Source of the DNA: an uncultured virus (IMG/VR IMGVR_UViG_3300022548_000001)
Lineage: Duplodnaviria; Heunggongvirae; Uroviricota; Caudoviricetes
IMG/VR virus record: IMGVR_UViG_3300022548_000001
Direction: 5' to 3' (one strand)
DNA length: 20,000 bases
In this document: piece by piece, positions 2,693 to 20,000 of the stretch
How positions within the stretch are numbered: the first letter of the stretch is position 1
Layout: every line of letters starts with the position of its first letter
The notes under the pieces: generated by a model
The model's database searches: none
The model's input: the letters and a program-made list of their open reading frames with translations, nothing else
Told to the model about the DNA's origin: nothing
Made by a program: the position numbers and the translations under genes

Positions 2693-3757
2693 TTAAACAG
2701 TGCCCTCTTCCATTAATTTTGATGACGCCTCAATTTTTGATTCTGAAATATCACCGGCGTCCGCTCCAAAATTAATGGCAATATCTTTTTGATCAGACAT
2801 ATCCAATGGAATTGAATCTTCTATATCCAATGGAATTGGGTCTTTATCAAATTCAGGAGCTGAAATAAGGGACGCGGCCGACTGCTCAAGCAGTGACATA
2901 GTCCCTTCAACCCCCGCAAGCATTGCTCTCTGTTTTTTCTGTTCAAGGCCCCTCTTTATTGGCTCCATGACCATTGTGTTAAAATCTGCGGACGGGAAAA
3001 GGTCAGTAACGAACACCTCCCTTCCTCCTGATTTTATTTTTCGGTGAACCAAAAATAGTTTGGCTCCAAAAAAGCCGTCGAAAGGAATTTCTTTTCCCGC
3101 TTCTATTTGTCGTATAATATGCGCCGCTTTAAGAAGAGTCCATAAATCCTTAAGAGCGGATTCTATGCTAATAATAGTATTTATACTTCTTGTTTCAAAG
3201 CGGTACGGCATTGTTGATAAGTCACAAGTTGGAAATATTTTCATCAATCCGATTGGCTTGCATTTTCCGGCTATATAATCGGGGCATGATTCGAAAATAC
3301 AATACTCTTTGTTATCAAATTTGCGATTAACCCATATTCTTTCGTTGTCAGCCCCAAAAGTAAGATATTTTGCCGGAGTTCCAAGGCCATGGCTTTTACA
3401 CAACAGCCCTTCAGTTGATGAAAACATTGATAAAGAGCTTTCCCAGATATCTTCTGGGGAATGATGAAGACATATAAATTCAAGAAGCCTTGGTGATTTA
3501 CTCCCTTTATTTTGAGCCTCAAGCGCTTCTTGAACGCTTTGATTTTGAACCCATTTTTTTATAATTACTTCTTTTTTACTTGCTCCAATTTTTTGGTTTT
3601 CAACAACCTCTTTTAACATTCGAAAAAATCCGCACGGAACCGGATGATTTTCCATATTCGGCGGTTCTTTAGGGCCATATCCAGTCGAAATTTTCCCTCG
3701 ATATCTGGTTATATGATTTAATAAATTATTTTCATCATGAGTTATTCCGCGAATCAT
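2693..3757 (-). CDS. Gp3-like (recombination directionality factor-like) phage protein
   Basis: 354 aa; pattern RYRGKISTG...P..GFF...KSPRLL...LLCKSHG...C...CP.....KCKPIGLM...FETRSINTI resembles the phiC31/phiBT1 Gp3-like family as I recall it; acidic C-terminal tail. Confidence 0.6.
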   Translation of the reverse strand: MIRGITHDENNLLNHITRYRGKISTGYGPKEPPNMENHPVPCGFFRMLKEVVENQKIGASKKEVIIKKWVQNQSVQEALEAQNKGSKSPRLLEFICLHHSPEDIWESSLSMFSSTEGLLCKSHGLGTPAKYLTFGADNERIWVNRKFDNKEYCIFESCPDYIAGKCKPIGLMKIFPTCDLSTMPYRFETRSINTIISIESALKDLWTLLKAAHIIRQIEAGKEIPFDGFFGAKLFLVHRKIKSGGREVFVTDLFPSADFNTMVMEPIKRGLEQKKQRAMLAGVEGTMSLLEQSAASLISAPEFDKDPIPLDIEDSIPLDMSDQKDIAINFGADAGDISESKIEASSKLMEEGTV

Positions 3758-5537: not shown

Positions 5538-6092
5538 TTATAAAACTATACTCTCATATTGAGATAAAAATTTTTTAATATCTATCATTTCTTGTTTTTC
5601 CTGAAAATCAAAATCAAGATCAATAACTTTGATAGGGTCCCAGCTTCTTTCGCCGTTTAATGGGTTAGGCCTGCATCCATATTCTACCCTATAAGGAAAT
5701 AATTCAAATGGAACTATTTCCGGCTCAAACATTGCAAATTGTTTTTGAAGCTCAGGCGGCAAATTCCTATTAAAAACTTTTGACAATTGTTCGTCAGTAA
5801 TTTTTAATCTATTAATCATGTATTGTTCTATAAATTCCCCATTCCTTCTTGCGTCAGGCCGAAATACGGAATGAAGAATAAGAAATACAAACAATTCTTT
5901 ATTGTTCATAAACCCGTCAAGAATTTTTACCATATTATTTGATACTTGATCAAGCAGGACAAGAAGACATTTAAAATTATTTAACTCATTTTTGGTATTA
6001 TCACACCAACCAATTTTGACAAAGTAATTGAAGGCGCGATTAAATTCCAAATATGGATTTCTTTTTTTATTAATCGCATTTCCGCTTTGCAT
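5538..6092 (-). CDS. Hypothetical protein (start uncertain)
   Basis: ORF track start at 6185 overlaps the primase-MCM gene by 116 bp. ATG at 6092 (MQSGNAIN) gives a 23-bp overlap. No recognised motifs. Confidence 0.6.
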   Translation of the reverse strand: MQSGNAINKKRNPYLEFNRAFNYFVKIGWCDNTKNELNNFKCLLVLLDQVSNNMVKILDGFMNNKELFVFLILHSVFRPDARRNGEFIEQYMINRLKITDEQLSKVFNRNLPPELQKQFAMFEPEIVPFELFPYRVEYGCRPNPLNGERSWDPIKVIDLDFDFQEKQEMIDIKKFLSQYESIVL

Positions 6093-9000
6093 ATCGCTCA
6101 CTAAGCGACTCAAATCTTTTGATCTTTTTGTCCATTTGAGAAGTGAGTTCATCTGGTGTAACATCGAGATAATCTGATCCTTCATATCCAGAATCTCTCT
6201 TTTCTATCAACCATTTTGAAAACATCTCCGTTTTTCTAAACATTCTATTTGACGTTCTTTCAAAACAATTTCTATGACAAAGAAGGTTAATTAATTTATA
6301 ACACACATCGGACGCGTATTTATACGAACAAGACCTTTCATTGTCATTTTTAGCGCTGACAATAAAAGCCCTGTTTGATATAACGGCGTCTATGTAGTCA
6401 AAGAAAACTTGCCTAAATGTACTTTCAGTGAATTCATCTTCTTTAATAAGTTGATCATATCCAATATATTTAATAATCCCCTCCATAAATCTCATATCAC
6501 CAAGCTTTTCGGCTTGATACTTGGCTTCTGAATATCTATCAAGGGCGATATTTGGATGGCAATATAATCTCATGAGGGTTGTGCATATAAAATCAACATG
6601 TTCCTTTGTAACATATATTTTATTCCAATCATTATTCGGCGGGATTGAATACAACATTGTCGCTATTGAAACCGACATTCTTAAAACCTTAGCCCTGATT
6701 TCAATATTAACAAGCTGACTTGAAGGATGAAATTTATTGAGAAGCACCCCCGATTTTTCCGTAATATACTCCTCAAGACCCGGCTCAAGAATTATATCGT
6801 CCGGCTTTCTTGAATAACACCATTTAATAAGATTTTGACATTGAAACTCGGTAAATTCCGTTGAAATTTGATCATATACGGATTGAAATTCTTTATAATC
6901 AACGTCGCTTTGTTTCACAATATACGCTATATCAAAACGTGAAAGTATCTCGTCTTTGTTAAAGCATAAATCTTTAAGCATTAAAAATGGTTGTGTATGT
7001 TCCTTTTTTGTTTTGTCGGTTCCCCGCTGGTTTGATAGCATTATTTTCCTTGTTCTGGCAGGGACTTTCCCAGATTTTGCCATTTGAACGTCGGCGACTC
7101 CGCTAGACCTGCAAGGAGTAAGACTATCAAAGCCTTCATAATTAATCTGACTAAGCTCGTCAATTATAATTATTCCACCGTCATTTGCCGGTATTTTTCC
7201 CCATGAAATCGATTGTGTATTCTTAAAAGTCGTTATTCCACCGAGAAGTCCGGTTCTGCTGACCGCCCCAGAACCGGATATGAACTCTCCTATCTTGTAA
7301 TGATTATGAAGAAATCGTGATACAACAGTTTTTCCACAGCGGGTTTCGCCGGCGATTAAGGCTTCAACATATCCTCGTGATATCGCAGGAAGCAAAGTTG
7401 TATTATGTATTTCCGCGGCAGAGAAGAAAGCAAGATCATTAATAAGAAACAGGTCGTCTCTTCCGGTTAACCCTGCGGCGTTTCCGAAAATTTTATACCG
7501 TCTCTTTAAATGACTTTCAATGCTTTCCCCGGGCTTTCTTCTGAACACCAGAAGAATATTGTGTATTTCTTCATTCATTACAAAATTCTCGATGGAAGTG
7601 GCTATAGGCTCGGCCTTATGAGCAAATAAGACGGCATATTGACCATTCCAAGAATTTGTTCTGACAGCCTCGAATCGATAAGATTTATTTGCATATATGT
7701 CTTGCTCGCCAAGCATGTACGCTTCCACTGTAATTGATGACGTGGCCGGGTCTCCATATTCAGCGACGTCTTTAGCGAGCCTGACATGAAGAATCTTTTC
7801 ATATTCAAGGTCTATAATTTTTAATCTATTACAATGAGAATTCGCAAGAATTAAGTCCTTAATATGATTTCTTTTTTGAGTTTCTGTCACTTGAATAAGT
7901 CCAAGTATATCGTGTTCCGATATTCTAATATGATTTCTATCAGTGACTCCTTCGTCCGTTCTTTCAAAATATAAAGTTATACCAGACTCTGTTTTATCAA
8001 ATTCCGGGTATGATGGAAGAGAGCAATTTTTGCATTTTCCAGATTTATTTGCGGCGCCGCCCGCACCCATTTCTTGGCATATAACACAAAATTTCTTTGG
8101 ATATTGATATGCAGTCGAATCAAAATCAGAGACTGACGATATAAGTTCGAGAATTATTGAACCATCGGAAGAATAATTTTTTGCCATTCTTGATTCTTGA
8201 AGCGTAACTTTTCTTTTTTCTTTCCGCGTTCTGCCTTCATTCTCGGTATAAACGTCAGTATCGTCCACCAATTTATTGAAAAGATAAATGGCGTGTTCAT
8301 TAAAACCATTTTTTTGAAGAAAATCGGTAAAATCTTTTTCCGCTCGTTTATATTTTTCCGCGCCGGATTTAGTTATGACTTTTTTCATTTTTGACGGATC
8401 AAGCCCTTTTGGATTTATGGGGCTTATATCAAGATTCACTATTTTAATTTGCCGAGCATATTGATACAGTGAGTGGGCAAGTTCTTGTGCGGGGGTTTTT
8501 CCTGTTTTTGCGTTTGGAGACGCGTCCGTGTCAAAAACAATAACTATTTCCTTATTATAAAATATCTGGCGGGCCATTTCTTCGCCAAAAATATTATTGA
8601 CATTATGGTTTGACATTCCGCCAAGAGTAACAGCCCCATCTATACCAAAAGAAATCGCGCAATACGTATCGGGCTCTCCTTCAAAGAAATAAATTTTTTG
8701 TTTTGTAAAATTATCAATCGGTATTGGTTTAACCGGAAGACCTTTTTCCCAATAATGCCATTTATAAGCCGGGTTTGGATTTTGTGGATCATAAATTTTT
8801 ATATTCAGGCAATACCCTTCGCTATCAATAATTGGAAAAGTAAATCTTCCTTTATCATCCAAACCTATTTTATATCGCTCAATTACCTGAGGCGTAATAC
8901 CTCTTGTTTGCTTTAAATATTCCATTTTACTATTATTTTCAAGAAGATTTTTTACTAACTTGTCAACAATAGATTTTGAAATTGTCGTTTCTTCTTTTAA

Positions 9001-9486
9001 TAACTCATTCAGCCCTGACGTCATTAAATATTTATACCCATCTTCTTGTTCTCGAGCTTTTCGCAATTTATCGGCAAAAATCATCATCTTTTGGCGATTT
9101 TCTTCAAATTCTTTATCATTAAAGCTTTCAGAAAATTTCATGATTTCAGTATTATTAAGGCCAAGAAAATCAATAATAAAATCCGAATATGAATCTCCAT
9201 AACGCGGGTCGCCTTTAAGCACTTCTTTCCAATATGATTGAAAATTCCCCATTATTGAACATGCAAAACAATGGTATTGACCCGTTTTATTATTTACAGA
9301 CATTGAAGGGTTATTATCAGTGCCTCTGCCATGAGCCGCGGCGTTCCAACAGTGAAAATTTCCATTCGATCCCTGCACCCACCCAAGTTTTTTATAAATT
9401 TCGTGATAATTTCCTGACATTATTTGGTCAGTCATGACATAAAAAGCTTTTAAATCTTCTTTTCGTATTTTATATTTTGTGCCCAT
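6070..9486 (-). CDS. Primase-helicase fusion: CHC2 zinc finger + DnaG-type TOPRIM primase + MCM-family AAA+ helicase
   Basis: Zn finger FHCWNAAAH..DNNPSMSV..YHCFAC; TOPRIM FEGEPD, VFDTD, KDFTDF; MCM motifs: Walker A GETRCGKT, GSGAVSRTGLLGG, WGKIPANDGGIIIIDE (Walker B), SGKVPARTRKIMLSN, arginine finger EILSRFD, VTKEHVD. ATG at 9486 has an AGGAG RBS. Confidence 0.9.
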   Translation of the reverse strand: MGTKYKIRKEDLKAFYVMTDQIMSGNYHEIYKKLGWVQGSNGNFHCWNAAAHGRGTDNNPSMSVNNKTGQYHCFACSIMGNFQSYWKEVLKGDPRYGDSYSDFIIDFLGLNNTEIMKFSESFNDKEFEENRQKMMIFADKLRKAREQEDGYKYLMTSGLNELLKEETTISKSIVDKLVKNLLENNSKMEYLKQTRGITPQVIERYKIGLDDKGRFTFPIIDSEGYCLNIKIYDPQNPNPAYKWHYWEKGLPVKPIPIDNFTKQKIYFFEGEPDTYCAISFGIDGAVTLGGMSNHNVNNIFGEEMARQIFYNKEIVIVFDTDASPNAKTGKTPAQELAHSLYQYARQIKIVNLDISPINPKGLDPSKMKKVITKSGAEKYKRAEKDFTDFLQKNGFNEHAIYLFNKLVDDTDVYTENEGRTRKEKRKVTLQESRMAKNYSSDGSIILELISSVSDFDSTAYQYPKKFCVICQEMGAGGAANKSGKCKNCSLPSYPEFDKTESGITLYFERTDEGVTDRNHIRISEHDILGLIQVTETQKRNHIKDLILANSHCNRLKIIDLEYEKILHVRLAKDVAEYGDPATSSITVEAYMLGEQDIYANKSYRFEAVRTNSWNGQYAVLFAHKAEPIATSIENFVMNEEIHNILLVFRRKPGESIESHLKRRYKIFGNAAGLTGRDDLFLINDLAFFSAAEIHNTTLLPAISRGYVEALIAGETRCGKTVVSRFLHNHYKIGEFISGSGAVSRTGLLGGITTFKNTQSISWGKIPANDGGIIIIDELSQINYEGFDSLTPCRSSGVADVQMAKSGKVPARTRKIMLSNQRGTDKTKKEHTQPFLMLKDLCFNKDEILSRFDIAYIVKQSDVDYKEFQSVYDQISTEFTEFQCQNLIKWCYSRKPDDIILEPGLEEYITEKSGVLLNKFHPSSQLVNIEIRAKVLRMSVSIATMLYSIPPNNDWNKIYVTKEHVDFICTTLMRLYCHPNIALDRYSEAKYQAEKLGDMRFMEGIIKYIGYDQLIKEDEFTESTFRQVFFDYIDAVISNRAFIVSAKNDNERSCSYKYASDVCYKLINLLCHRNCFERTSNRMFRKTEMFSKWLIEKRDSGYEGSDYLDVTPDELTSQMDKKIKRFESLSERYAKRKCD

Positions 9487-9514
9487 ATTTTCTCCTGCCA
9501 AAATATTATTAAAT

Positions 9515-9566: not shown

Positions 9567-9824
9567 TTACGTTTTTGCTATATCAGACAGACTTGGGGGC
9601 TGCTTTATATTTTCAATTGCGGGGAGTTTGCCCGACTTTATACGAATTGTTTTTGAGACCGTTTTCACAACAAGATCTCCACCTTTTAGCCTAGAAACTA
9701 ACGAAACTGACGCGACCTCTCCACAAATTTTAACACCAAACTCGGACCTTCCGGACAAACTTTCCGCCTCAACAATTTCAATAGAAGCGTTATTAGACAA
9801 TTGACCAGAACAAACGACTCTCAT
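9567..9824 (-). CDS. Small hypothetical protein (85 aa, MRVVCSG...)
   Basis: AGGAGG RBS precedes ATG at 9824; the longer TTG start in the ORF track is unlikely. Confidence 0.7.
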   Translation of the reverse strand: MRVVCSGQLSNNASIEIVEAESLSGRSEFGVKICGEVASVSLVSRLKGGDLVVKTVSKTIRIKSGKLPAIENIKQPPSLSDIAKT

Positions 9825-9917
9825 TGGCACCTCCTTTAAAATATTTAAAAAAAAAATAATAACGCTATTAAACAAACACAACAACAAGATATTGATTAAA
9901 ACAGTCTATCTATTGTA

Positions 9918-9964: not shown

Positions 9965-9993
9965 TTGAAAATATGGTTTCGAAAATATATATT
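9965..9993 (+). promoter_or_regulatory. Sigma70-like rightward promoter (TTGAAA-17 nt-TATATT)
   Basis: TTGAAA at 9965-9970 and TATATT at 9988-9993; predicted transcription start near the ATG at 10000. Confidence 0.5.
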
Positions 9994-9999
9994 ATGAGT

Positions 10000-10230
10000 A
10001 TGAAAGATTCCAAACTCACATTATCTAAGGCTTCACATTTTTTAAATATACATCCAAAAACTCTCCAAAAAATGGATAGGGATGGAAGGCTTAAGGCTTT
10101 TCGTACCAAAACAAATCGTAGATATTATCTTAAATCTCAACTCCAAAAAATTAAAGACAAAATTGATAAAGAGCGTGACGTTAAATTTTTATATAATATA
10201 TTAAAACTTGTAAAAAAATATTATTATTAA
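10000..10230 (+). CDS. MerR/excisionase-like helix-turn-helix DNA-binding protein
   Basis: LTLSKASHFLNIHPKTLQKMDRDGRLKAFRTKTNRRYY matches the MerR-type/Xis winged HTH, also seen at the N-terminus of IS607 TnpA. Start could be 9973, 9994 or 10000. Confidence 0.8.
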   Translation: MKDSKLTLSKASHFLNIHPKTLQKMDRDGRLKAFRTKTNRRYYLKSQLQKIKDKIDKERDVKFLYNILKLVKKYYY

Positions 10231-10260
10231 ATTGTCATAATGTTTGGCTGTGGAGGAAAA

Positions 10261-11397
10261 ATGCTTGAATGGAAACATGATAAGCGCTGGAACCCATTTA
10301 ATAGTTATAAATTACTTATCCATGTTGAATATTGGAAAAAAATTAATAGAAGAAATATAATACCGGCCCCTATTCTTGTCACTGTCGATCCAAGTAATAT
10401 TTGTAATTTAAATTGTCAATGGTGCAATTCCGAATATATTAGAACAAAAAGCCATATAATGATGTCCGAAGATCTTCTTATAAAAATAGCGGATTATCTC
10501 CCCGTTTGGTGTAATTCTACTCCAGGCGTTCAGGCTGTGTGCATAGCCGGCGGAGGCGAACCGTTAACCAATCGCCATGTCGGCTCTTTTATAGAGCAAT
10601 TAATTAAAAATAAAATTGAAGTTGGCGTCGTTACTAACGGCGTATTAATAGATAAATTTATAGAACCATTATCAAAATGCTCATGGGTCGGCGTATCAGT
10701 AGACGCCGGAATCGGTCAAACATATAATTTATATAAAGGCTCCTCAACATTTGGAAAAGTAATTGAAAATATACAAGCCCTTATTAAGTATTCAAAAGAA
10801 AATAAAACAACGCTTGGCTCGGATAATCCTGCCTATGGCGTAAGTTATAAATACCTCATTTATAAAACTAATATACATGAAATGACGATTGCGGCTCAAA
10901 CAGCTAAAGACATTGGATGTAAAAATATTCATTTTCGGCCGGCTAGTGTCCCATGGGATAAACTTGAAAATCAAACTGTTTTATTTCATGATAACGACAT
11001 TCAAGAGTTTGATAATCAAATAAATAAATGCATGAATTTAGACGACAATACGTTTAACGTTTATGGAATAACTCATAAATTTAGCCCTCAATTTAAAAAA
11101 TCAAATAATTTTAAAAAATGCTATGCAATATTTATGACTGCAGTGTTTGAGCCTGGAATTAATCATAACACTTTTAATCTCGGGCTTTGTTGCGACAGGC
11201 GCGGAGACAAAACACTTGAATTATTAAAAAACTGCGGCAATCCGTCCGAAATTTCCTATGTATGGGGAGGCGCCGATCATTGGAAAATACATGATTCAAT
11301 ATGTGTATCAAAATGTCCTCGATGTACATACCAGCCTCATAATGAAATTTATGAGAACGTAATTCTTCAAGACAATATGACATATAAGTTTATATAG
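10261..11397 (+). CDS. Radical SAM enzyme with SPASM/twitch domain
   Basis: CNLNCQWC (CxxxCxxC), GGGEP, VTNG, VSVDAG; C-terminal Cys set KKCY...LCCD...CPRC; GGAGG RBS before ATG at 10261. Confidence 0.92.
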   Translation: MLEWKHDKRWNPFNSYKLLIHVEYWKKINRRNIIPAPILVTVDPSNICNLNCQWCNSEYIRTKSHIMMSEDLLIKIADYLPVWCNSTPGVQAVCIAGGGEPLTNRHVGSFIEQLIKNKIEVGVVTNGVLIDKFIEPLSKCSWVGVSVDAGIGQTYNLYKGSSTFGKVIENIQALIKYSKENKTTLGSDNPAYGVSYKYLIYKTNIHEMTIAAQTAKDIGCKNIHFRPASVPWDKLENQTVLFHDNDIQEFDNQINKCMNLDDNTFNVYGITHKFSPQFKKSNNFKKCYAIFMTAVFEPGINHNTFNLGLCCDRRGDKTLELLKNCGNPSEISYVWGGADHWKIHDSICVSKCPRCTYQPHNEIYENVILQDNMTYKFI

Positions 11398-11405
11398 GAG
11401 GGTAT

Positions 11406-12647
11406 ATGGCTGTTTCGGTTGTTGGTCTGGGAAAGCTTGGCCTTTGCACCGCCGCATGTTTATCATGCGAGGGTATACCGGTTATTGGATACGACAATGA
11501 TGAAACAAAAATATCTAATCTAAGTAAAAGAAAATGTTATATTGACGAACCAGGGCTTGAAGATAAATTAAACGACGCATTTATTAATCATTCATTTGCC
11601 GTTACGAATAGTATTGAAACCATCGTCGAACACACCAATCAAACATTTATAATAGTTCCAACCCCAAGCAATGAATATGGGTATTTTTCAAACGCGTCAA
11701 TAATAGACGTTCTTAAAAAAATGGTCATCCCGCTTCGAAGAAAAAAAGAATATCATATTATTAATATTGTTTCGACGGTTATGCCTGGTTCATGTAATAA
11801 ATTTATAACATACATTGAAAAGCATGCCAATAAAATTGCGGGAAAAGATTTTGACGTCGTATATAATCCAGAGTTTGTGGCCATAGGAAACGTTATACAA
11901 GGGTTTTTACACCCAGATATGGTATTAATAGGCTCCAACAGCGAAAACGCTGGAAAGGCTGTTGCTGATAATTATAAAACAATAAGCAATAATATTCAAA
12001 TAATGTCGCTGATAAACGCAGAGCTTACTAAGCTTAGTCTTAATTGCTTCTTAACAATGAAAATAAGTTTTATAAATGAAATTGCGACAATATGCGAAGT
12101 AACCCCCGGAGCAAATATAGATTATATTACCAACGCCATGGGGTGTGATTCAAGAATTGGACGTAAATTAATGACAGCAGGGCTTGGTTTTGGCGGCCCA
12201 TGCCTTCCTCGCGACATAATAGCCCTGTCCGCATATGCAAAGAAAAAAGGGTATAACCCGCACCTTTTATACGCTATTAATAAAACGAATAATAAGATCA
12301 TTGGGAAAATATTGTCAAAAATTTTATGCCATGCCCCACAAGACGCGATTATTGATATTTATGGATCTTCATATAAATCAGGAACAAAACTCACCGAAGG
12401 ATCTCAATCAATAATATTAAAAAATCAACTTATTGAAATGGGATATCAAAACACCCGAATGTTTGATAATCCGCATAATTATGATAAAGACGACCGCCCA
12501 TTAGTAATAATCATGATGTCCGATAATATTAAAATGAAATTTGAAGACATTATCACAAAAGAAACGATTTTTATTGATCCGTGGAGAAAATATATGCATT
12601 TAAAAAAACATTGTATCTATTATGGAACGGGGGTAAGCGTTGATTGA
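11406..12647 (+). CDS. Nucleotide-sugar dehydrogenase (UDP-glucose/GDP-mannose dehydrogenase family)
   Basis: VVGLGKLG Rossmann motif, IVPTP, STVMPG, YNPEF, AELTK...N, catalytic GFGGPCLPRD; GGAGG RBS. Confidence 0.93.
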   Translation: MAVSVVGLGKLGLCTAACLSCEGIPVIGYDNDETKISNLSKRKCYIDEPGLEDKLNDAFINHSFAVTNSIETIVEHTNQTFIIVPTPSNEYGYFSNASIIDVLKKMVIPLRRKKEYHIINIVSTVMPGSCNKFITYIEKHANKIAGKDFDVVYNPEFVAIGNVIQGFLHPDMVLIGSNSENAGKAVADNYKTISNNIQIMSLINAELTKLSLNCFLTMKISFINEIATICEVTPGANIDYITNAMGCDSRIGRKLMTAGLGFGGPCLPRDIIALSAYAKKKGYNPHLLYAINKTNNKIIGKILSKILCHAPQDAIIDIYGSSYKSGTKLTEGSQSIILKNQLIEMGYQNTRMFDNPHNYDKDDRPLVIIMMSDNIKMKFEDIITKETIFIDPWRKYMHLKKHCIYYGTGVSVD

Positions 12648-13437
12648 AATAAATAATGTAATAAATTATTGGAATAACCGCCCGTGTAATATCAGACATT
12701 CCGACAAACCAATCGGATCAAAAGAATATTTTGACGAAGTCGAAATTAAGAAATATACTGTTGAGCCGCATATTCCGCCATTCGCTGATTTTAAGGCGTG
12801 GAAAGGAAAAAAGGTTCTTGAAATAGGATGCGGAATAGGGACTGACACGATAAATTTCGCCAGACATGGCGCTATTGTTACCGCCGTAGACATTTCTGAG
12901 GAGTCTTTAAAAATAGCAAAAATAAGAGAAAAAGTTCTTGGGATAAGTCCTGGAAATATTAAATTTTACCAAGCTAACGCCGAAAAATTATCGGAAGTCA
13001 TTCCTATTGAAATATATGATCTTATATATTCTTTTGGCGTCCTGCATCACACGCCGTCTCCTGAATCCGCTATTTCAGAAATAAAAAAATACATGGGAGA
13101 AAAAACAATTTTAAAATTAATGTTATATCATAAAAATTCTACTAAAGCATTTTCGCACCCATTCCAATACGCTGGAAAATATTCAGAAGCCGAGCCCGGA
13201 TGTCCAATAACGCATATATATACAAAATTAGACGTAAAAAGGCTTCTTCAAGATTTTCATATTCATGAAATAAAAGTCGATCATATTTTTCCATATCATA
13301 TAAAATCATATAAAAAACATATATATAAAAAAAGGTGGTATTGGGCTATAATGCCAAAATCTATTTTTTATTTTTTAGAAAAAACATTTGGATGGCATTT
13401 ATTAATTACAGCGTCACTAAAACAGCATAAAAACTAA
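12640..13437 (+). CDS. Class I SAM-dependent methyltransferase
   Basis: VLEIGCGIG motif I, VTAVDIS, YDLIYSFGVLHH; TTG start overlaps the upstream stop, with GGGG RBS. No DPPY/NPPY or PCQ motif, so not a canonical DNA methyltransferase. Confidence 0.88.
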   Translation: MIEINNVINYWNNRPCNIRHSDKPIGSKEYFDEVEIKKYTVEPHIPPFADFKAWKGKKVLEIGCGIGTDTINFARHGAIVTAVDISEESLKIAKIREKVLGISPGNIKFYQANAEKLSEVIPIEIYDLIYSFGVLHHTPSPESAISEIKKYMGEKTILKLMLYHKNSTKAFSHPFQYAGKYSEAEPGCPITHIYTKLDVKRLLQDFHIHEIKVDHIFPYHIKSYKKHIYKKRWYWAIMPKSIFYFLEKTFGWHLLITASLKQHKN

Positions 13438-13677: not shown

Positions 13678-16035
13678 TTATCCAAACGGCCAATCAAATA
13701 TTGGAAATCCATCCTTTCCTATTCCTCCTCTGATGGCGCTGACAAAATAATCAATGCCAAGTTCTTTAACTCTTTTCATTCCATTTTTTGAAAGCATATA
13801 TGTCATTGATTTTGCTATTGATTGATCAAATGTAATGGTTATACCCCAATCGTCTTCAGCTCTCATAATACGTCCATACATTTGAATCATATCAGTAAAT
13901 ACCGCCCTATCCAAATAATTTGGATCTTTTGAAATATTAAACGTTTCATTTCCTTTATATTTTGACATTACATACGGATCGCCAAGGCTTGGGATTGGCT
14001 TTTTCAGAATTATTTGTATTCTTGCTGTATCATATTTAAAATCCACCCCTTCATTAACAGACGCTGATACAAAAGTAATTCCTTCGTTTGGGTGGCGGAA
14101 CAAATATTGAAGGATTTCATCTTTATGAATAAAATTTGTCACATGATGCGTTATTTTATTTTTAATCGACTTGTCATTTTTTCCAATTTGAATAAACCAT
14201 TTTTCGTTTACATATGGACAGAATTCAGCTATTCTTTTCGCCAAATCAAACGAAAAAACATGAACAATTACATTAGCGTTTGACGACGGTTGAGCGTTTT
14301 TTCCTATAATCTTTTTTATATTTTCTTCTTTTTTGCAATATTCGCGCACTTTTTCAATAATCTCACCAAGCTGTCTAGTAAAATTTAATGTTCCGTCATG
14401 AGTTTTATATATATATGATCCAGATTCGTTTTTTTGAGAAAAATCCATATAATTGCTTCCACGGAGAATGTATATCGGCCTTCGTTCCCTATCAAATGTC
14501 GTCGGTATCGAAATCATTTCAACACTGTTCATGTTAACCCCAAACGTCTTCATCATACCAATCTGATCTATCCATGTTCCAGTGCTTAAAATGACATGCT
14601 CCGCTTTGTTATAAAAGAACGTATTCATGATTTCGGGAACGTTTATTGGCACTAACTTTATAGATTGCAATTCGGCTTTATGATAATCAGGCATAACATT
14701 TTTTACAAAAGCAATAATATCGCTTTCTTCGTATGCCCTCCACATATTATTCATACAATTTGAAAATATGAAAGAATTAGGTATATTCATCAAACCAACA
14801 ATGTCTTCAAGATGTTCTATTGCATTGTTGTACCACATATAATTTTTCATAGAACTAAAATTAAAAAAAGTATGATCACATTGATTGTCTTCACACTTTT
14901 TTAAAAAATACTCCCGACATTTAACCCATGCCTTATTAAGACGAGGGTTTTCACAATTTCCTTTACAAACAGAATCAATAAAATTTAACATATTAAATTG
15001 TATTTTATCCGGCGACATGTCAGAAATTATTTTAAATTCATTAACAAGCTGATTTGTGCTTGCTGGTATCTTTACGCCGCCGCCAAGATAAGAATATCCA
15101 TATATAGGCCACAAATGAGACGTAAGAATCGCGGCGCATTTCGCGGGAAGTATTACTGTTTTCATTAAATACATAAATTTTTCAGTAAATTCTTTTATAT
15201 CCTGACAATCATAAAGTTCTGATATATCTATTCCAAAATATTTTTTAAGAAATTCAACGTGAATTCCGCCTCCAAATATTCTTTCGACAATATTTTCTAT
15301 TTTATGGCATTCATCAATAACCATAAGCTTGTTCTCGTTAAAAAGCGGAGATTGAATCCTATTAAGCATATAAAAAACGTCAGGATTCAAAATTCGTATT
15401 TGATATACTTGTGATAACACTCTTGTGCTTTTTACTGGGCATTCAACCGGACTTATATCGCATCCTATTATAGAAGAATAAAATCTATGATGAATAACAT
15501 CATTAGGATATAATGTTTTTATCCGATTTAAAACATTAGAAATATCATCGGAAATTTCAAAACCGGATCTCATTCTAAAAATTCTATTATCATTTCCATA
15601 CATATTAATAATTTTATGAATACTTTTTAAAAGATCTGAATCTGAAAATGACGATTTTTTATTTGAATTTTGACATGTTTCGTATTGATCGCCGGAATAA
15701 TTGCATCTGATTCGCTCATCAAGAATGGTCGCTCCATTACAACAATATGCGCCGCGCCCTTTAACCATTTTTATTTCAGGCCACAGCTCTTTAACCATTT
15801 GATCTTGAAGCTGCTTTTGGTGTGTCAAGTAGACGGTCTTGCCAAGACACATTCCGACGGTATAATTAATTGCCGATTTCCCGCAGCCAACCGGCCCATT
15901 AAGACAGACAAATTTTTTCCCATTTTGAAACGCCTCAATAATTTTAATAATGGTTTCTTTTTGATATGGTCTATAGCGCGGAGACCCATCGCTATTTTTT
16001 ATTGGAAAATGTTTATCAATCAGATCATTAATCAT
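13678..16035 (-). CDS. DinG/XPD(Rad3)-like superfamily 2 helicase
   Basis: Q motif RPYQ, Walker A GPVGCGKS, VKGRGAYCC, DECH box, ILSTGT, NEGVDFK, motif VI QMYGRIMRAEDDWG; Cys cluster after motif Ia is compatible with an Fe-S domain; AGGAG RBS. Confidence 0.88.
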   Translation of the reverse strand: MINDLIDKHFPIKNSDGSPRYRPYQKETIIKIIEAFQNGKKFVCLNGPVGCGKSAINYTVGMCLGKTVYLTHQKQLQDQMVKELWPEIKMVKGRGAYCCNGATILDERIRCNYSGDQYETCQNSNKKSSFSDSDLLKSIHKIINMYGNDNRIFRMRSGFEISDDISNVLNRIKTLYPNDVIHHRFYSSIIGCDISPVECPVKSTRVLSQVYQIRILNPDVFYMLNRIQSPLFNENKLMVIDECHKIENIVERIFGGGIHVEFLKKYFGIDISELYDCQDIKEFTEKFMYLMKTVILPAKCAAILTSHLWPIYGYSYLGGGVKIPASTNQLVNEFKIISDMSPDKIQFNMLNFIDSVCKGNCENPRLNKAWVKCREYFLKKCEDNQCDHTFFNFSSMKNYMWYNNAIEHLEDIVGLMNIPNSFIFSNCMNNMWRAYEESDIIAFVKNVMPDYHKAELQSIKLVPINVPEIMNTFFYNKAEHVILSTGTWIDQIGMMKTFGVNMNSVEMISIPTTFDRERRPIYILRGSNYMDFSQKNESGSYIYKTHDGTLNFTRQLGEIIEKVREYCKKEENIKKIIGKNAQPSSNANVIVHVFSFDLAKRIAEFCPYVNEKWFIQIGKNDKSIKNKITHHVTNFIHKDEILQYLFRHPNEGITFVSASVNEGVDFKYDTARIQIILKKPIPSLGDPYVMSKYKGNETFNISKDPNYLDRAVFTDMIQMYGRIMRAEDDWGITITFDQSIAKSMTYMLSKNGMKRVKELGIDYFVSAIRGGIGKDGFPIFDWPFG

Positions 16036-16725: not shown

Positions 16726-17064
16726 CTAAAATTTCTTGCCGCCATGCATAAACTCCCTACCTCGATTAAATGCAACTTTGGCGATTAGCGCCTCGGCAAC
16801 ACGATAATTTCTAGCGATTGCATAATCCATGATACGAATAATAACATCCGCAAGCTCTTCCTCAACCGCTGTATACTCAGGTATATGATCCGACGCCGGG
16901 TTGCCATGTCGTAGTCCTTCCAGCGCTTCTGATAATTCAGAGTGCATAAGGGCAATAAGCTCGCCATCGCTGCGATCGCTTCTCCACCAACCCTTCTCAA
17001 TCGCAATGGTGTTTACTTCTTGAGATATCGCCCTGAATGCATTGACAAAATCAATATTACTCAT
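16726..17064 (-). CDS. MazG-like nucleotide pyrophosphohydrolase
   Basis: IALMHSELSEALE...EEELADVIIRIMD (ExxE...ExxD metal ligands) and C-terminal KVAFNRGREFMHGGKKF; ATG at 17064 follows AAAGGGG. Confidence 0.85.
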   Translation of the reverse strand: MSNIDFVNAFRAISQEVNTIAIEKGWWRSDRSDGELIALMHSELSEALEGLRHGNPASDHIPEYTAVEEELADVIIRIMDYAIARNYRVAEALIAKVAFNRGREFMHGGKKF

Positions 17065-17142
17065 AATACCCCTTTCTTTATATAATACTCGGCGGACGCC
17101 CTCTGAAAGACCACTGAATCTACATTTTTCCATTGTCGATAT

Positions 17143-19339: not shown

Positions 19340-20000
19340 TTATTCCATATTTTTTTAATTTCTAACGGATAAAAAAAAGGGGAGGAAACCAGCGTATTAT
19401 TATTAAGATTTTTGTGACCATCAATATAGTCAATAATAGACTTGCAAACCTTCTAACGAGAATATCATAATTTTTTTAACTTCTAACTAGGAAAAATTTT
19501 CCTATCTTAAAGTAATACTTTAACCTTTTTTCGTAACTTAAAAAAAAATTTTCTTTACATCTTAAGAATTTCATGTTATAAAATATAAAAATTTTCGATA
19601 TTATGTAAACTAATTTCATTCTAAAATGTAAAATAAGGCCTTTTATTTTCTAAAATGTAAAAAAAAATTTTGTTTTTTTAATCGTTTAAACAATTTTTAC
19701 ATTTTAGAAAAATTCGACTGTTGAAAATGCCAAAAATCATGATTTTCTCGCTTTGTGTCAAGAAAAGTCTACTTAAAAAGCTAAAAATTATACTTAAAGA
19801 TGTTCTTTAAATAAATATAAAAATTTAATTAAATATCAATAGGTTATAAATTGGCATAATTTTTGCTATGCCCAATATATATATATATTATATAATATAT
19901 TGAAAAATATATATTTATATATATATATATAATATTAAATAGGGTTTTTTTACCTGTTTTCACTTTACGGTCAAAAAAAATTTTGTACATCAATAAAAAA
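19340..20000. other. AT-rich non-coding region with direct and inverted repeats; candidate replication origin or genome-end control region
   Basis: No ORF in the track; TTCTAAAATGTAAAA at 19619-19633 and 19648-19662, inverted copy within 19694-19711; (TA)n tracts at about 19875-19935. Confidence 0.5.

Follow-up and report, generated by a model that had tools for sequence, protein, structure and literature searches.

The gp4 protein of phage T7 carries a zinc-ribbon/TOPRIM primase N-terminal to a ring helicase. This helicase is of the RecA-fold type of superfamily 4 (SF4) and runs 5′–3′ on the lagging-strand template, therefore the strand that it encircles is also the one on which the primase works. 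Helicases of SF3 run 3′–5′. In the alpha protein of phage P4 a DnaG-type primase likewise precedes an AAA+ helicase (PMC4889955), in this case one of the D5 family of SF3. A third arrangement is found in BcMCM, from a Bacillus cereus prophage, where one chain begins with a primase and ends with an MCM-like SF6 helicase; the protein hexamerises with nucleotide, and its flexible primase modules lie on one face of the ring (PMC3273815). Here we describe a protein that shares features with all three. It is encoded by a gene on the minus strand, at positions 6070..9486, of a 20,000-nucleotide (nt) stretch of DNA (the window) from an uncultured virus of the Caudoviricetes (IMG/VR record IMGVR_UViG_3300022548_000001), and it joins a divergent DnaG-type primase to an MCM-like AAA+ motor. 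We think that the source is a large, uncultured tailed phage and that the protein serves as its replicative primase-helicase, and put the probability of this at roughly three in four.

The original prediction for this locus, made from the sequence alone, was of one chain of 1138 amino acids (aa) in which a DnaG-type primase is joined to an AAA+ motor. Both parts hold. The ORF list and the translation give a single uninterrupted open reading frame (ORF) of this length at 6070..9486, and matches from profile–profile alignment (hhalign), from Pfam and from a profile search of PDB sequences place the two enzymes in the one chain. The gene begins with an ATG at 9486, has its stop codon at 6070–6072 and is preceded by a Shine–Dalgarno site, AGGAG, that was read from the sequence on the same strand, 5 nt upstream of the ATG (9492..9496). 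A TTG at 9501, five codons before the ATG, is a less likely start.

The primase is recognisable along its length. Residues 1–415 align in hhalign with two cellular DnaG proteins (97.6%, E 3.4e-12, 304 columns), both of which were verified by TIGR01391 (452 and 442 bits), and PHROG 47, ‘DNA primase’, matches the window protein with an E-value of 2.4e-17. The DnaG alignment is collinear through the zinc ribbon, the N-subdomain, the EGxxD and DxDxxG motifs and a late DP motif. The CHC2 zinc ribbon, which has four ligands and aligns to that of DnaG, occupies aa 44–90 (9217..9357; this and the following segments are all on the minus strand). It is followed by the N-subdomain of the catalytic core at aa 180–260 (8707..8949), with R195, K230, Y232 and K242, which is collinear with DnaG and has a weak DNAG_N match in Pfam. 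The TOPRIM fold spans aa 262–366 (8389..8703); here E271 in EGEPD (aa 269–273), D319 and D321 in DTD (aa 319–321) and D363 in NPxGLDP align to the EGxxD, DxDxxG and DP motifs of DnaG. A conserved junction block (KRxEKDFTDFxxKNGF ... VYTEN, aa 378–418, 8233..8355), defined by alignment, is the last stretch common to sister proteins with another helicase. Beyond aa 418 the chain runs on into the N-tier of the helicase, and Pfam gave no match in the window protein to the C-terminal DnaB-binding domain of cellular DnaG. To judge by its sequence, the N-terminal half is a divergent DnaG-type primase that has an intact active site and no DnaB-binding domain.

Searching 5.8 billion proteins returned 58 homologues, most of them full length with 43–82% identity, on contigs of up to 208 kb. 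Conservation was read from two sets, a family alignment of 27 full-length homologues (37–71% identity to the window protein) and a more distant set of 132 cluster representatives, each of at least 850 aa. The named motif positions are kept in 103–132 of the 132 representatives, and some of the misses arise because a few rows carry a different C-terminal module. On the primase side, the CHC2 ligands C46, H52, C73 and C76 are invariant in all 27 homologues and kept in 117–124 representatives. The block G270-E271-P272-D273 as well as D319 and D321 are also invariant in the 27, with D363 nearly so; D319 is kept in every one of the 132 representatives and E271 in 124. The possibility of an inactive TOPRIM domain, which the original prediction had raised against itself, receives no support, as the catalytic residues are intact in both sets.

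The helicase half is conserved in the same way. All 27 homologues have G713, R716 and K719 of the Walker A motif (GETRCGKT, aa 713–720), D776-E777 of Walker B (IIIIDE, aa 772–777), the pair N768-D769, the sensor-1 residue N819, and R850-F851-D852 of the SRFD motif (aa 849–852). The central residues K719, D776/E777, N819 and R850 are kept in 113–130 representatives (K719 in 130, R850 in 128). R931, a sensor-2 candidate assigned from a low-confidence alignment of the lid, is kept in at least 90% of the homologues, and K933 and R936 nearby are invariant. Finally, the Cys-rich segment contains CVIC (aa 467–470) and CKNC (aa 485–488). The family-wide Cys set consists of C470, C485, C488 and C552, invariant in 27/27 and found in 123–125 representatives (C470 in 125). 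Every motif that had been listed at the outset is therefore present, although conservation does not extend to C467, with which CVIC opens. Judged by these alignments, the motifs of both primase and motor are real and under selection, and not chance resemblances.

What kind of motor is it? The AAA+ P-loop core lies at aa 700–862 (6901..7389) and contains Walker A and B, an invariant tryptophan (W762), sensor 1 and the SRFD arginine finger. Its assignment draws on Pfam, a PDB profile search, hhalign and the spacing of motifs. PF00493, the MCM P-loop model, matches aa 703–860 at 29.4 bits (cut-off 23.3) and also matches 26 of the 27 relatives. Against all PDB sequences, the first 35 matches of the family profile are MCM proteins (MCM2–7 and archaeal MCM, best E 1.7e-8), and the first match of another kind is an NtrC-type activator at E 0.0024. 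For hhalign, a 152-sequence family alignment was compared with 28 true MCMs from Thermoplasmatota genomes, 15 ComM proteins and six sigma54 activators. The core matches MCM at 97.7% (E 2e-12, 147 columns), ComM at 95.7% (E 9.2e-9, 116 columns) and the sigma54 activators at 35.9%. Walker A and Walker B are 57 residues apart, compared with 59 in MCM, 79 in the 15 ComM proteins and 65 in sigma54 activators; for Walker B and sensor 1 the distance is 43, compared with 44 in MCM. W762 is 4 residues off the position of the MCM tryptophan, in a region that aligns with the helix-2 insert of MCM. According to a published comparison, MCM has an aromatic residue in this insert, whereas the insert of ComM is much shorter and has none (PMC11612176). 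Among ComM-type features, Pfam gave no match to ChlI or Mg_chelatase_C in the window protein and just 11.2 bits for Mg_chelatase; among those of SF3, it gave no match to D5_N, DUF5906 or Pox_D5. On these comparisons the motor matches MCM best, and the term ‘MCM-like’ is supported while ‘full MCM’ is not yet.

Three further regions surround the core. The helicase N-tier (aa 420–695, 7402..8229) holds the C470/C485/C488/C552 cluster and is a putative Zn/OB domain on the strength of its conserved cysteines. The lid region (aa 863–960, 6607..6900), where the sensor-2 candidates R931, K933 and R936 are located, has a weak hhalign match and conserved residues. The match to the MCM lid is consistent in position and comes to 25.9% (E 7.3e-4) with the 152-sequence alignment, compared with 0.1–1.1% in cross-domain controls; with the 27-sequence alignment, sub-domain hhalign detected the core only. 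The C-terminal domain (aa 961–1138, 6073..6606) has no Pfam or PDB match, and its last ~110 aa are specific to a long subfamily. When aa 415–700 alone were used in a protein-language-model search, the nearest named clusters were all MCM_OB, with scores from 0.85 to 0.79, a result to be read as a lead only. This lead and the four-Cys cluster are the only hints of an OB/Zn N-tier.

Several results weigh against calling the protein a DnaG joined to an MCM. In the primase, Zn_ribbon_DnaG reaches 22–23.6 bits, just below its cut-off of 24.9, Toprim_2 is weak and below the curated cut-off (each of the two models matches 17/27 relatives), and TIGR01391 dnaG scores 52 bits (E 5e-14) against an equivalog cut-off of 283.6. 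The primase is best regarded as a divergent member of the superfamily and not as an orthologue of cellular DnaG. In the helicase, PF00493 is not specific, since it exceeds its cut-off in six-frame searches of 14/14 control genomes, E. coli included. In the N-tier, the lid and the C-terminal 178 aa, Pfam gave no match of any kind at E≤10, and so none to MCM_OB, MCM_lid, MCM_C or a winged helix. The N-tier compares with the MCM N-terminal domain at 0.2–0.5% in hhalign and the C-terminus with the MCM winged helix at 0.2%, and no PDB sequence was matched by the C-terminal part. Trees are no more decisive as to the sister group of the motor. A 97-row tree of the AAA+ core, which leaves out four long MCM ORFs (L023, L039, L040, L042), the sigma54 activator L065 and P0085 as mis-cut rows, supports the sigma54, ComM, MCM and phage-family clades at 100, 99, 97 and 99, and the split that unites family and MCM has 53% in the Shimodaira–Hasegawa-like approximate likelihood ratio test (SH-aLRT). 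In an approximately unbiased (AU) test on a thinned set of 40 rows, neither family+MCM (p 0.686) nor family+ComM (p 0.707) is rejected; family+sigma54 is the free tree's own split on these rows, with a support of 0.

The helicase had originally been called an archaeo-eukaryotic MCM with a full set of MCM AAA+ motifs. At the level of motifs this stands, whereas only the P-loop core and, weakly, the lid are detectably MCM. The archaeo-eukaryotic label is not established, given that Pfam found no MCM_OB, MCM_lid or winged helix and that the AU test rejects neither MCM nor ComM. As for clustering with AAA+ families other than MCM, the motor forms a clade of its own, for which the grouping with ComM is as little rejected as that with MCM.

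The fusion is not confined to this virus. With proteins clustered at 50% identity, the family profile matched 5343 representatives at E≤1e-3, and 1249 of them reach E≤1e-30. Among the 150 representatives listed, most have ~920–1010 aa and about ten match the primase only. Relatives of ~950 aa mostly end, among the matches listed, at profile position ~1025, and they probably lack the last ~110 aa. We sampled 11 proteins of 930–1349 aa that match the helicase part; Zn_ribbon_DnaG was found in all 11, and PF00493 in nine at E≤1e-3. In the ESM Atlas, Zn_ribbon_DnaG, Toprim_2 and MCM occur together in at least seven viral clusters, of 59–161 members each. Cultured phages contribute 53 records, from phages of Microbacterium (36), Bacillus (10), Arthrobacter (2), Paenibacillus (2) and Weizmannia (1), with two more listed as Caudoviricetes. 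The 30 rows listed in the tblastn search have 22–26% identity over 69–85% of the window protein (E 1e-30 to 2e-55) and are mostly annotated ‘DNA primase’ or ‘DNA primase/helicase’. For example, gp045 of Bacillus phage BSP7, the protein of Weizmannia phage Youna2 and the ‘DNA primase/helicase’ of Microbacterium and Arthrobacter phages belong to the same family and have the same domain order, although at ~950 aa they are shorter than the window protein. The survey of phage databases for TOPRIM–MCM fusions that had been proposed thus finds the fusion to be widespread. Full-text literature searches, which did not cover subscription journals, found no description of a DnaG–MCM-like fusion, and no biochemical account of one. 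Far from being a rarity, the fusion defines a very large family whose annotations are generic and whose biochemistry is unstudied.

Some relatives differ in their modules. P0101 and P0201, relatives of ~1340 aa, contain an intein with a LAGLIDADG endonuclease, and in two relatives, P0101 among them, the intein interrupts Walker A of the helicase, splitting its loop between GDTR and CGKT. Three sister proteins (P0092, P0095 and P0187) share the primase but carry an SF3 helicase of D5_N/DUF5906/RFX type, so a single primase clade occurs with AAA+ motors of two kinds. Over aa 1–418, P0092 and the window protein share 34% identity (BLASTP, E 5e-77), and the likeness ends there, at the junction block. 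In five other proteins (P0081, P0083, P0084, P0085 and P0058) the primase is followed by a C-terminal ~550–600 aa that have no Pfam match over the cut-off. P0074, P0077 and P0080 could be taken for split forms but seem to be fragments of genes, and we make no claim for them. A Thermoplasmatales metagenome-assembled genome (MAG; L018, G001:C9) encodes, in addition to a true MCM, a 443-aa MCM-like protein (PF00493, 56 bits) that lacks the N-terminal domain of MCM. The alignment of this short protein with the window family covers 226 columns, lid included.

How does this layout compare with those already described? BcMCM differs in its primase, which is an archaeo-eukaryotic primase (AEP) with polymerase activity and not of the zinc-ribbon/TOPRIM DnaG type, as had been pointed out at the start and as the published description bears out; there, AEP and MCM are termed an ‘exclusive combination’ (PMC3273815). 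P4 alpha differs in its helicase. A 2016 survey reports that SF6 helicases show no preference for a type of primase, and that the MCM-related DUF3987 helicases occur fused to or beside DnaG or AEP primases (PMC4889955). Phage SF6 helicases of the DUF3987 kind (T1, N4 dns, Corndog) are described there as distant MCM relatives with a C-terminal winged helix (PMC4889955); by contrast, neither the window protein nor the 47 relatives scanned has a DUF3987 match in Pfam. Among the seven SF6 layouts in the survey's supplementary table, none has DnaG fused to the helicase (PMC4889955). The fusion is real and widespread, and as a layout of phage replication proteins it is so far unstudied.

The original prediction inferred a hybrid replisome in which the primase must reach the strand excluded by its helicase. 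This problem of strand polarity is not a new one, as in P4 alpha, too, the partner of a DnaG-type primase is a helicase of SF3 (PMC4889955). In P4 alpha, poxvirus D5 and BcMCM alike, an N-terminal primase sits on an AAA+ helicase and faces the same strand problem. The hybrid replisome that had been proposed is a reasonable picture, then, without being a paradox.

That the protein works in replication is probable, as suggested by the intein in Walker A, by a conserved module context and by the lack of a DnaB-family helicase in relatives. In related genomes the gene order is conserved and runs from the primase-helicase through a ~260-aa protein and a ~355-aa Gp3-like protein to a ~690-aa fusion of DnaQ and PD-(D/E)XK domains. 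Relatives of the long subfamily are found on IMG/VR contigs of 42–208 kb, of which three are rated 100% complete by CheckV (G044, G045 and G046, 175–208 kb). We searched the records of five relatives, these three complete ones included, with Pfam for PolA, PolB, Pol III alpha, DnaB, SSB and the beta-clamp; each was found in 0/5. As no DnaB-family helicase was found in the five, the MCM-like fusion is their only candidate ring helicase. In G046 (175 kb), the 56 ORFs that reach 250 aa or more gave no match to a replicative polymerase in PHROGs, and 21 of these, nearly all without a PHROG match, give no polymerase in Pfam; the sole polymerase-like match is a 356-aa reverse transcriptase. BSP7 has its own PolA, whereas the complete relatives of the window lineage show no recognisable DNA polymerase. 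The replicative polymerase of the lineage would be either that of the host or one too divergent to recognise. Two other ORFs of the relatives deserve mention. One, of 761 aa (L069:3470-5755), lies in the replication module and is without assignment. The other, in two relatives, is a single ORF of 2110–2115 aa (L006:1311-7658 and L010:227-6559) that adjoins the primase-helicase gene and combines RNA polymerase domains of Rpb2 (beta) and Rpb1 (beta′) type.

We suggest the following mechanism. The CHC2 zinc ribbon would read the template, and the TOPRIM centre (E271, D319, D321 and D363) would make short RNA primers. Behind them, the MCM-like (SF6) module would consist of the Cys4 N-tier, a motor with a trans-acting SRFD finger and a sensor-2 arginine, and then the C-terminal domain. 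It would form a hexameric ring that tracks 3′–5′ along the template of the leading strand and turns its N-tier towards the fork, as CMG does in published work (PMC6634965). Six primase modules, tethered to the N-tier, would sit where the excluded lagging-strand template emerges and would prime there; their place at the fork junction follows from the hexamer, the 3′–5′ tracking and the N-tier-first orientation that we infer. The primers would be handed to the host Pol III, a hand-off that a bacterial-type RNA primer would fit, and which is probable because no DNA polymerase, SSB or clamp can be recognised in the complete relatives. In its most complete form, the proposal is that bacterial phages captured a true MCM with both tiers, Zn/OB in the N-tier and AAA+ in the C-tier, as the helicase half and welded it to a bacterial primase, giving in this lineage of 175–208 kb phages a minimal chimeric fork machine: an N-tier-first ring with six DnaG-type primases that passes its primers to the host Pol III. 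This complete form is tentative, and we regard it as rather doubtful.

Could the protein act mainly in initiation? It is possible that it is an origin-binding, self-loading initiator like SaPI Rep, Cch/Cch2 of SCCmec or P4 alpha, in which the C-terminal domain would recognise an origin that the protein then melts and primes; such a role is compatible with that of a fork helicase. Primase-helicase fusions of mobile elements often have an origin-binding domain, and the window protein ends in a conserved domain of 178 aa that no Pfam or PDB entry matches. P4 alpha and members of the D5 family are reported to bind origins via a C-terminal winged helix (PMC4889955), and Cch2 to require iterons beside its own gene (PMC7581432). 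However, our repeat search found no convincing iterons or significant repeats beside the primase-helicase gene, promoter-like sites (24, with 20.9 expected) and terminator-like sites (3, with 2.8 expected) are at chance level, and structures of Cch or SaPI Rep were absent from the matches of the family profile at E≤1.

A role away from the fork is improbable. Here the motor would be an ATPase of the ComM/Mg-chelatase type, and the protein a primase-translocase of recombination or repair that carries out branch migration and repriming. The 15 ComM proteins match the core nearly as well as MCM does (94.1–95.7% in hhalign, E 1.2e-7 to 9.2e-9), their grouping with the family is not rejected by the AU test, and genes for nucleases and an SF2 helicase flank the primase-helicase gene. 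ComM is reported to have bidirectional helicase and branch-migration activity (PMC11612176); as it is the next-best match, polarity cannot be read from family resemblance, which is a further point against the 3′–5′ tracking proposed above. That said, MCM outscores ComM in every comparison, the Walker A–B spacing of ComM differs by far more, Pfam finds neither a ChlI/Lon-like N-domain nor Mg_chelatase_C, and another hexameric replicative helicase is found in none of the three complete relatives. Least probable of all is an archaeal virus whose MCM-like part reflects the replisome of an archaeal host: the relative closest in the genome collection (69% identical) comes from a 168-kb contig in a MAG with the title Thermoplasmatales archaeon, which carries its own true MCM, but the bin in which a virus contig is placed says little about its host, a Chitinophagales MAG contains another relative, more distant members occur in phages of Bacillus, Microbacterium and Arthrobacter, the window has strong bacterial-style Shine–Dalgarno sites (AGGAG and AAGGAGGTG), and the family core is not nested inside the archaeal MCM clade of the 97-row tree.

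To return to the replicative primase-helicase, the genes around it look, from their sequences, like a phage replication and nucleotide module. At the start of the window, a fusion of a DnaQ-like 3′–5′ exonuclease (RNase_T) and a PD-(D/E)XK (Cas4-like) nuclease at 1–1941 on the minus strand runs off the end; it is kept at about 690–707 aa in relatives L006, L010 and L014, and its DnaQ-type exonuclease has only domain-level matches among cultured phages. The Gp3-like protein is encoded at 2693–3757, and no cultured relatives of it were found. Between this gene and that of the primase-helicase are three ORFs to which no function is assigned. On the other side, a small helix-turn-helix gene (MerR/excisionase-like, 9973–10230) precedes an operon on the plus strand (10240–13437) for a radical S-adenosylmethionine (SAM) enzyme, a UDP-glucose/GDP-mannose dehydrogenase and a SAM methyltransferase. 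Relative L014 has kept the same set of genes, and the operon may have a role in nucleotide-sugar or DNA modification. Further on are a DinG/XPD-like SF2 helicase (13678–16035) and a MazG-like pyrophosphatase (16726–17133).

Upstream of the primase-helicase gene lies a small ORF on the minus strand (9567–9887). A consensus AAGGAGGTG precedes an in-frame ATG at 9824, which is probably the start of this ORF; the listed TTG start at 9887 is less likely. The window has a G+C content of ~35%; no tRNA genes were found in it, and an Rfam search of it gave no match. Its end is AT-rich, with a 29-nt unit repeated 2.1 times at 19619–19678 and an (AT)32 tract at 19875–19935.

The coupling of primase and helicase is well understood for T7 gp4, and much less so for MCM/CMG, where the primase works on the excluded strand. 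A single-chain, homo-oligomeric DnaG–MCM-like phage enzyme would be a simple system for studying this coupling, and cultured relatives in phages of Bacillus subtilis and Microbacterium make the enzyme accessible. The family also bears on how freely viral primase and helicase modules recombine, with one primase clade joined to an MCM-like or an SF3 motor. Finally, recognising such a large and generically named family would improve the annotation of phage genomes.

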